DNA from: Alphaproteobacteria bacterium
Lineage (GTDB): Bacteria; Pseudomonadota; Alphaproteobacteria; Rickettsiales; SXRF01
Reading direction: 5' to 3'
Assembly: GCA_025360605.1 (NCBI GenBank)
Contig: JANYBV010000040.1
Span: forward strand, 2,193 to 66,192
DNA: 64,000 bases
In this document: piece by piece, positions 32,658-33,830 of the stretch
Layout: each line of letters starts with the position of its first letter
How positions within the stretch are numbered: position 1 is the first letter of the stretch
Made by a program: the position numbers and the translations under genes
Notes under the pieces: generated by a model
Told to the model about the DNA's origin: nothing
Database searches by the model: none
What the model saw: only the letters and a program-made list of their open reading frames with translations

Positions 32658-32848
32658 CAGATAGTTAGATTAATTTATGGCCTGCCACCCCCGTCAAAAG
32701 GGCTGACAGGCCATTGCTACATCTGCATTAATTAATTTCTGTTAATAAGTTGATTTTTGTGTTATCATCCACCTGTTTCGAGGTTTGTTAGCGGTGGGTA
32801 AAGTGCCCCCCGTAACAACCAATTTCTCCGTACTCTAGGAGTCGACAA

Positions 32849-33766
32849 GTGAAGAAGTTCTCTCAGGTTCGTCGTGGCGGTTTTACCCTCGTCGAAGTCT
32901 TGGTGGTGATTGCTATCATCGCTATCCTTATCGGCCTGCTTTTGCCAGCTGTACAAGCAGCCCGCAACGCGGCCAGCCGGATGCAGAGCGTCAACCACCT
33001 CAAGCAGGTGGCCCTCGCGATGCACAACTTCCACGATGCGCATAATGCCTTTCCACAGAACGGCAACGATGCCGGTGGAAACATTCTGCGTAGCTGGATG
33101 GTTGATCTGGGTCCGTATGTTGAGGCGCAAGTCTCAAGCTACGATCCAACGACACCGTTCTGCGACGGCAACAACGCAACGACCTTCGGACTCAACTGTC
33201 CAAAGGTCTACACCTTGCCTTGGTTCAATATGGGTTCAAACCCTGGTGAACAAGGCATTGGTCTTGTCTGTGGTGAAAGCTACAACATGTACGACATCTC
33301 CAGCCGATCCTCGTTGGATTGGAGCTACTGGCAGTTGTCTACCGGAGGATTCGTCCCCCGCACCCCTACAGGAGTCGGGCGAACGGCTAAAAACCGATCG
33401 CTGCCAGGATTTCCTGCTAACCCGAAGGTGAACATATCTTCGATCACTGATGGTACCTCAAACACCATCATGCTCGCACCGCTCGCCGGCTACGTCGAAT
33501 ACAACGATGCGCAAGCAGACATGTACAGACGAACCGTGTGGACCAACCCAGCCTTCGGGCTCGTGGACGGTACAAGGGCGATGGAAGTGACACTCGGAAA
33601 ACCGCTTCAGATGGACGACCTGCAAAGGCACGTCGTCGGAATGCGAAACGGGCTGACCCTCATCGCGAAAGCAGATGGTTCAGCAGGCGTGTACAACGTC
33701 AACATCCTGATGCTGCCCAACTTGAGTAAAATCAATTCGGGTGCCATCAAGAACTTCGGCGAGTAA
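32849..33766 (+). CDS. DUF1559 / H-X9-DG-type protein with prepilin-type N-terminal cleavage-methylation motif (Planctomycetes-type pseudopilin-like)
   Basis: GTG start 7 nt after AGGAG. N-terminus [56 protein letters not shown]. Mid-protein [13 protein letters not shown] and C-terminal ...KADGS... Strong C-ending codon preference. Confidence 0.8.
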   Translation: [305 protein letters not shown]

Positions 33767-33790
33767 TCGTTGGGGTTAGAAAAAATCAAG

Positions 33791-33828
33791 CCGCTCTCCC
33801 CCAACCAAGGGGGAAGCGGTTTTTTTTT
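33791..33828. terminator. strong bidirectional intrinsic terminator
   Basis: CCGCTCTCCCCC-AACCAA-GGGGGAAGCGG followed by T9. Lies between the convergent genes ending at 33766 (+) and 33831 (-). Confidence 0.7.
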
Positions 33829-33830
33829 GC

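Follow-up and report, generated by a model that had tools for sequence, protein, structure and literature searches.

A divergent, one-copy-per-locus DUF1559 pilin-like gene beside an exopolysaccharide cluster in Alphaproteobacteria

Introduction

Genes for DUF1559 proteins (PF07596, also SBP_bac_10) occur by the dozen in planctomycete genomes, with 68 copies in Planctopirus limnophila and 74 in Rhodopirellula baltica, and this massive paralogy makes both genetics and the analysis of gene context uninformative there. The family has been called 'apparently restricted to Planctomycetes' (PMC10632474) and is treated as planctomycete-restricted and of unknown function (PMC10632474, PMC2754498, PMC5352709), two of its proteins being essential in P. 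limnophila (PMC10632474); literature on DUF1559, PF07596 and H-X9-DG was found to hold only descriptive mentions. The subject here is a DUF1559 gene in 64,000 nucleotides of DNA from an uncultured freshwater alphaproteobacterium (this whole stretch is termed the window, and all positions follow its numbering). The gene, at 32849..33766 on the forward strand, starts with GTG, encodes a 305-residue type IV pilin-like protein identical to protein P0122, and adjoins a synthase-type exopolysaccharide cluster.

Major pilin genes are usually monocistronic. A pilin-like gene can reportedly also stand among polysaccharide genes, the Hps pseudopilins of cyanobacterial hormogonia being encoded in the hps polysaccharide locus. 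The cluster in the window is itself analogous to the Nfr system of E. coli, the phage N4 receptor glycan system, which comprises the GT2 synthase NfrB, the outer-membrane barrel NfrA, the inner-membrane-anchored periplasmic protein YbcH, and WecB, and for which a polymer of N-acetylmannosamine (ManNAc) has been proposed (PMC8669469).

The reading favoured here, with somewhat better than even confidence, is that the gene was acquired anciently, a Planctomycetota-like donor being the most probable source, and has passed down the lineage vertically ever since, its product being a pilin-like protein that works with the polysaccharide system. We have high confidence in an old acquisition and in a functional, highly expressed pilin-like protein; the link of that protein to polysaccharide is offered tentatively. 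The alphaproteobacterial lineage reduces the problem posed by planctomycete paralogy, as it presents one copy per locus, a fixed genomic partner, a high-expression signature and a defined set of lost invariant residues, and it provides the hypothesis that a fibre or anchor of pilin-like protein cooperates with polysaccharide export.

The DUF1559 protein and its relatives

The protein reaches 85.3 bits against PF07596 (cutoff 23.3, E=9.8e-24, residues 36-221), with the match covering only profile positions 1-183 of 268, and it exceeds the cutoffs of PF07963 (N_methyl; 28.9 bits, cutoff 21.2) and TIGR02532 (25.6 bits, cutoff 16.3). An earlier note on this DNA had read the gene as a prepilin motif fused to DUF1559 and had proposed the PF07596 and N_methyl models as a check; the scores bear the fusion out, and the N-terminus and the KADGS element that it quoted are present in the product. 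The prepilin motif is the single one in six frames of the window.

A word-indexed search found one protein 94% identical to that of the window (the P0001 cluster) and one 37% identical (P0002). It also found DUF1559 proteins of planctomycete type by the thousand; of those aligned with the greater part of the query, most are 31-41% identical to it. The best planctomycete match is only about 40% identical, and a scan of the genome collection with the window protein matched only three planctomycete loci. An exhaustive HMMER search of 1.84 billion representatives returned 173,890 matches at E<=1e-3, only seven of them at E<=1e-30, and added P0244 (47%), P0245 (46%), P0246 (41%) and P0247 (38%). 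The clade discussed below has seven members, namely the window protein and six further 50%-identity representatives, and every named close homologue outside it is planctomycetal. Three clade members grouped in a neighbour-joining tree of 121 sequences (bootstrap 94/100), as did all seven in a tree of 70 sequences (99/100). The orthologous loci referred to by label are L006-9 (the loci of the 94% orthologue), L001 (GCA_043761865.1), L093 (a 128-kb ENA contig), L094 (GCA_010031735.1), L091 and L092.

The N-terminal pilin features are retained throughout the clade. A class III (prepilin) leader peptide of 11 residues (32849..32881), with predicted cleavage after Gly11, is followed by FTLVE, and Gly(-1), Phe(+1) and Glu(+5), together with a short basic leader and about 20 hydrophobic residues, make up a canonical class III signal. 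None of the seven members departs from the cleavage motif (G/A)↓(F/L)(T/S)L(I/V)E. The N-terminal alpha-helix that follows (residues 12-65; 32882..33043), hydrophobic in its first half, is near-identical to the planctomycete family consensus, and family columns 12-36 are invariant. From what is known of type IV filaments, we infer from the retained Gly/Ala(-1), Phe/Leu(+1) and Glu(+5) and from the near-invariant helix that the protein is processed by a peptidase of the A24 family and packs into a filament core.

Family hallmarks are also found in the remainder of the protein, in part in altered form. The DGTSNT motif (residues 201-206; 33449..33466), which forms the family-invariant core strand, is intact in the family alignments, and these place a degenerate H-X9-DG element, R-X9-DG (R266, D276, G277), at 33644..33679. 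The literal H-X9-DG signature claimed earlier is accordingly not the one present, the His being Arg, and the H-X9-DG domain model TIGR04294 of NCBIfam gave no match to the window protein at E<=1. Across the clade only P0002 still has this His, the other six members carrying Arg or Lys in its place (Lys in P0001). The family-invariant Cys47 is Ser in the window protein and Ser or Gly in all seven members; Glu211, which stands five residues after DGTSNT and is found in 100% of the other family members aligned, is Pro in the window protein and something other than Glu in all seven. The Cys column of the CPS(D) element is not aligned in the window protein, C117-P118 being a possible equivalent. 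The protein is thus a PF07596 member by score that fails three residue-level family hallmarks as well as the H-X9-DG model, and alignments and trees show a distinct, monophyletic, Cys-less 'R-X9-DG' subfamily, whose sequence changes reveal which family-conserved residues are dispensable.

Models of better-known pseudopilins do not describe the protein: it scores 34.9 bits against GspG (TIGR01710; cutoff 88.85) with only residues 11-71 aligned, and 14 bits against HpsB (NF038303; cutoff 150), and is neither GspG nor HpsB. Two AlphaFold2 models, with predicted local distance difference test (pLDDT) scores of 69.5 and then 79.5 (the second, with clade members in the alignment, having a predicted template modelling score of 0.82), both show an N-terminal helix of 52 residues, and a beta-sheet formed by the conserved DGTSNT strand together with the R-X9-DG hairpin, the helix spanning residues 14-65 at pLDDT 87-97. 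Comparison with the PDB by Foldseek returned only type IV pilin helices at non-significant E-values of 0.47-1.7, and in a PDB sequence search the helix matches those of type IV pilins and GspG, with similarity ending at residue 70-90.

Expression signals and codon usage

The gene carries expression signals of its own. The AGGAG described in the earlier note, a ribosome-binding site, lies at 32837-32841, with 7 nt between it and the GTG. Further upstream, alignment of six loci revealed an extended -10 promoter-like box (32760..32768, forward strand; TG at 32760-61, TATCAT at 32763-68), of which TGnTAT..T is invariant upstream of all six orthologous loci, the rearranged L094 included, within flanking sequence that cannot be aligned. 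The box reads TATAAT in four other loci and stands about 85-95 nt 5' of the start codon, in L094 too. A generic sigma-70 scan upstream of the gene found no full -35/-10 pair, the box having come from the comparative alignment, and its promoter function is inferred from that conservation. Downstream, an intrinsic terminator with an 11-bp G+C-rich stem and a run of nine T (33790..33828) is predicted to act on both strands and is shared with a convergent gene at 33831-34628; its folding energy is -30 kcal/mol on the forward strand (z=-3.8 against shuffles) and -24.6 kcal/mol on the reverse strand (z=-2.3), so that the strong terminator noted earlier is found where it was expected. Terminator-like hairpins also lie 3' of the orthologues in L093 and L094. 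The conserved upstream box and these hairpins in the window, L093 and L094 indicate that the DUF1559 gene would form a monocistronic unit.

The putative 5' untranslated region (32775..32848, forward strand), delimited from sequence and the six-locus alignment, holds a conserved block, AACCAATTTCTCC, at 32817-32829, found in the window, L006, L091 and L093 and partially in L001, the CTCC of which lies a few nt 5' of the GGAG in the ribosome-binding site. A conserved structure or a hairpin sequestering the Shine-Dalgarno sequence was considered and dropped, RNAalifold having predicted no consensus pairs across the six loci, and a regulatory role for the block is therefore unsupported. A separate hairpin at 32677-32714 (-23.6 kcal/mol, z=-2.9), directly 3' of the small-protein gene that precedes the DUF1559 gene and kept in L006, has no T run; it may possibly be a weak terminator or a processing site between the cluster transcript and the pilin-like gene.

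Codon usage in the gene favours C-ending synonyms, with AAC 22 and AAT 3, and TAC 9 and TAT 1, counts that had been given essentially exactly. Pooled over seven pairs of codons ending in C or T, NNC:NNT is 61:21 in the gene vs 2055:2769 in the other 58 open reading frames (Fisher p=1.2e-8), whereas the ratio of G+C to A+T at four-fold degenerate sites is ordinary, at 92:68 vs 5328:3659 in the rest (p=0.69); the G+C content at third positions (GC3) is 0.65 vs a window mean of 0.53. The earlier note had read the skew as a mark of single-gene horizontal acquisition, a conclusion that does not hold, since the skew is limited to NNC/NNT and is shared by orthologues in genomes of differing composition (NNC fraction 0.82 in L001, 0.89 in L094, 0.85 in L092 and 0.71 in L006). 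Had the donor been richer in G+C, NNC and four-fold sites would both have risen; given the ordinary four-fold sites and the recurrence of the skew, donor composition was rejected as its source. An excess confined to NNC is what translational selection usually leaves, through codon-anticodon wobble preference in highly expressed bacterial genes. Phasins are typically abundant proteins, and the phasin gene of the window (PF09361; 52388-52999, reverse strand), taken as an internal reference for expression-linked codon bias, has the same preference (NNC fraction 0.64, AAC 11, AAT 2). The NNC-specific skew thus appears to point to selection for high expression in the host rather than to donor composition, and the lesson for method is that a C-ending codon skew in a gene of a 'foreign' family need not signal foreign DNA.

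The most extreme codon bias of the window (GC3 0.87, NNC fraction 0.91) is that of another gene, at 24146-24718 on the reverse strand, which encodes a 190-residue secreted protein with a clear signal peptide and no Pfam or NCBIfam match. L006 has a 79% homologue and a paralogue at the corresponding place, and L001 has a 30% homologue; in L094 the position is taken by different, equally biased secreted proteins. The gene is fast-evolving, its ratio of nonsynonymous to synonymous divergence (dN/dS) being 0.62 relative to L006.

Linkage to an exopolysaccharide cluster

The neighbouring cluster comprises six genes on the forward strand (25298..31840), encoding a PgaC-like GT2 of 421 residues (25298-26563), a bactofilin-like/beta-helix protein (26509-27723), a protein without a described family (27720-28775), the uridine diphosphate N-acetylglucosamine (UDP-GlcNAc) 2-epimerase WecB (28754-30022), a YaiO-family outer-membrane barrel (29898-31025) and a 270-residue membrane protein, also of no described family (31028-31840). 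Between the cluster and the DUF1559 gene lies a further forward-strand gene (32007..32657) for a small membrane protein, without a family match, whose repeat tail is rich in Ala, Thr and Pro. Its conserved part measures 100 residues, and the tail derives from tandem repeats with periods of 30 nt (32316-32397) and 18 nt (32489-32526), the length varying from 136 to 216 residues among relatives.

The association of these genes extends across the lineage. The order GT2, bactofilin-like protein, protein without family, WecB, YaiO, 270-residue protein, small protein, DUF1559 is found in the window, L001, L093 and the readable part of L091, and a GT2-WecB-YaiO cluster adjoins the DUF1559 gene in all five lineages with readable flanks (L006-9, L001, L091 in part, L093 and L094). 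The small protein stands beside the DUF1559 gene in five of six lineages and in none of 80 outgroup loci. In L001 and L093, where the full cluster can be read, the cluster proteins are 43-85% identical to those of the window vs only about 37% for the DUF1559 proteins. L094 has the cluster at 75% GT2 identity with the DUF1559 gene at its other end, 5' of the GT2 gene, and a strong terminator between the two.

The outgroup loci came from a metagenome scan, which found nothing when run with the 270-residue membrane protein and 80 loci when repeated with the GT2. They stem from many environments and hold the core cluster at 57-82% GT2 identity in largely conserved order. Neither a DUF1559 gene nor the small protein was detected in them by tblastn or a family-built hidden Markov model, L011 (82%) and some other contigs being too short to reach the position. 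Because the cluster occurs in these 80 loci without the DUF1559 gene, the gene appears to be an addition, made at the base of the lineage, to an older and widespread cluster, beside which it then stayed. The possibility that the 270-residue protein is a divergent prepilin peptidase was rejected, as it is kept in the 80 pilin-less clusters and has no A24 match.

Origin and proposed role

An alphaproteobacterial context of the DUF1559 gene is supported by several predicted products of the window. The named relatives of its RNase PH (47148-47864) are Alphaproteobacteria, Pseudomonadota or Rickettsiales metagenome-assembled genomes at 72-78% identity, and this RNase PH is 100% identical to a protein on a contig that also carries the pilin-like protein (P0122/P0124); an alpha-type GrpE, phasin_2, FYDLN_acid, DUF6468 and a flagellar gene set are present as well. 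That the family is unusual in such a context, as had been remarked, is confirmed by these relatives and by the planctomycetal affinity of homologues outside the clade. Relative to the L006 orthologue, the gene has a nonsynonymous divergence (dN) of 0.036, a synonymous divergence (dS) of 0.186 and dN/dS 0.195, and the cluster and flanking genes have dS 0.13-0.26 and dN/dS 0.01-0.13, the fast-evolving 24146-24718 gene being left out. These values show purifying selection on the DUF1559 gene, somewhat less tight than on its neighbours, and since its dS falls within their range the gene shares their history. A transfer origin is the most economical reading, because the named close homologues outside the clade are planctomycetal and the family has been described as 'apparently restricted to Planctomycetes' (PMC10632474). 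Of the two options offered by the earlier note, a 'very unusual native pilin-like protein' comes closer to the truth; the other, a single-gene acquisition, does not stand as a recent event, an old transfer being the form in which it is most economical.

With regard to function, the gene would be transcribed alone from the conserved extended -10 box, and a prepilin peptidase encoded elsewhere in the genome would cleave the precursor after Gly11 and methylate Phe12. The conserved hydrophobic helix would anchor the mature protein, which may polymerise into a short fibre or pseudopilus and, as an abundant protein, give the neighbouring polysaccharide system a structural partner in polymer export, anchoring or organisation at the envelope; it would not be a solute-binding protein. 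A bolder version, which we regard as unlikely, is that the protein has been recruited as a dedicated export component, a pseudopilus-like fibre or piston that pushes or tethers polymer across the envelope. If true, this would for the first time place DUF1559, the largest family of paralogues in Planctomycetes, in a functional context, and would amount to a new hybrid of pilus-type and synthase-type secretion.

Several observations weigh against an ancient acquisition followed by work with the polysaccharide system. The trees are neighbour-joining trees of divergent sequences in which long-branch attraction is possible, and the donor phylum is deduced from the distribution of the family rather than from a rooted, taxon-labelled tree. 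Two orthologues, in L093 (NNC fraction 0.54) and L091 (0.51), show little codon bias. The globular head has no solved structural relative by PDB sequence search or by Foldseek of the two models, so that a ligand or binding function cannot be read from the fold. No peptidase A24, GspE/F, PilB/C or secretin was found among the scanned open reading frames of the window, as the earlier note had said of prepilin peptidase and of type II secretion system (T2SS) and type IV pilus genes, or in the fetched flanks. Finally, three of the five linked lineages (L001, L091 and L093) keep broad collinearity with the window outside the cluster too, and much of the linkage may therefore be shared ancestry, with only L094 supporting it independently.

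This collinearity, and hence the lack of independence of the linkage, also speaks for a different role, which we consider possible though on the improbable side: the protein could be the major subunit of a T2SS pseudopilus or type IV pilus encoded elsewhere, its position beside the cluster being an accident of the landing site. The predicted monocistronic arrangement, with its own promoter-like box and terminator, would suit such a subunit, as would the 80 loci in which the core cluster works without a DUF1559 gene. Against it, the displaced gene of L094 is still found at this cluster, at its opposite end and not elsewhere, and none of the loci holds a second pilin-like gene or machinery beside the DUF1559 gene.

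The lack of processing and assembly genes nearby can also be taken to mean that the protein is neither cleaved nor polymerised, the helix being the inner-membrane anchor of a periplasmic polysaccharide scaffold or binder, as proposed for YbcH in E. coli Nfr, where a GT2 synthase, an outer-membrane barrel, an anchored periplasmic protein and WecB set a precedent (PMC8669469). The clade's loss of the invariant Cys, Glu and His likewise suggests a changed role. A plain anchor, however, needs no Gly/Ala(-1), Phe/Leu(+1) or Glu(+5), yet these are kept in seven of seven members, together with a helix that hardly differs from the planctomycete family's; we judge this account unlikely.

A recent single-gene transfer from a planctomycete, with donor codon usage, is already contradicted and very improbable: the family is otherwise planctomycetal (PMC10632474) and GC3 exceeds the window mean, but four-fold sites are not enriched in G+C, the best planctomycete match is distant, the gene is present beside the same cluster in all five related lineages examined, the clade groups in 99 of 100 replicates, and dS equals that of the neighbours. 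Least tenable of all is an artefact of assembly or binning that joined a planctomycete fragment to an alphaproteobacterial contig, as might be suspected of an assembly from an uncultured organism, since the 94% orthologue occurs with the same neighbours on both sides in at least 16 independent contigs that derive from different ENA samples and reach 830 kb, a recurrence that reproduces both junctions, as the earlier note had suggested checking, and excludes a chimeric join, and since the gene is also found in two NCBI assemblies of related organisms, with conserved intergenic sequences.

Other features of the window

A second, large polysaccharide locus of the Wzx/Wzy-dependent type occupies positions 1-24000 and has components associated with XrtA/PEP-CTERM, namely a TIGR03015 ATPase (17396-18313), a chain-length determinant (13058-14854), a tyrosine autokinase (12174-13040) and a Poly_export protein (16141-16959), but the window showed no gene for an exosortase.

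A stretch of low G+C content (0.39-0.43) at about 37900-42424 carries the type I restriction gene hsdR (38664-41846, reverse strand) and abuts tRNA-Ser(GCT) (42333-42424). The related locus L006 instead has an MmeI-type restriction-modification gene and a TacA/acetyltransferase toxin-antitoxin pair just past the shared genes. The stretch looks like a variable defence islet, and it makes a more convincing recent horizontal acquisition than the DUF1559 gene.

Comparison with known systems

The DUF1559 proteins of planctomycetes share with the window protein the prepilin leader, a near-identical helix (GFTL.ELLVVIAII..L..LLLPAVQ), the NxLKQ, HN.HD and DGTSNT motifs and a C-terminal DG hairpin. 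The window gene differs in its alphaproteobacterial host, in being present in one copy per locus instead of dozens, and in carrying Ser for Cys47, Pro for Glu211 and Arg for the His of H-X9-DG. It is, furthermore, fixed beside an exopolysaccharide cluster and is not followed by the small lipoprotein gene of the planctomycete locus L003.

With GspG and the type IVa major pilins (PilA/PilE), the protein has in common the class III signal peptide, Glu(+5) and the long N-terminal helix, and its gene has in common the monocistronic arrangement with a strong terminator. Unlike in these systems, no machinery lies nearby, and similarity ends at about residue 70, beyond which the window protein has a globular part of twice the size that resembles no pilin head of solved structure. 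The likeness to the Hps pseudopilins lies in the position of a pilin-like gene in or beside a locus for polysaccharide biosynthesis and export, but the window protein is no sequence member of HpsB and the polysaccharide system is of another type.

As for the cluster itself, a membrane GT2 synthase, a UDP-GlcNAc 2-epimerase and an outer-membrane beta-barrel are shared with Nfr, an analogy which suggests that the cluster may make a ManNAc-containing polymer by a synthase-dependent route. In contrast to Nfr, the GT2 of the window has 421 residues and no MshEN domain for cyclic di-GMP, the barrel belongs to the YaiO family with no tetratricopeptide repeat part detected, and there are extra conserved genes without a family; we know of no pilin-like component in Nfr. 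Set against these systems, the locus is not a new system, and what it appears to hold is a small, divergent, one-copy-per-locus DUF1559 subfamily in Alphaproteobacteria, which offers a handle on a very large family.

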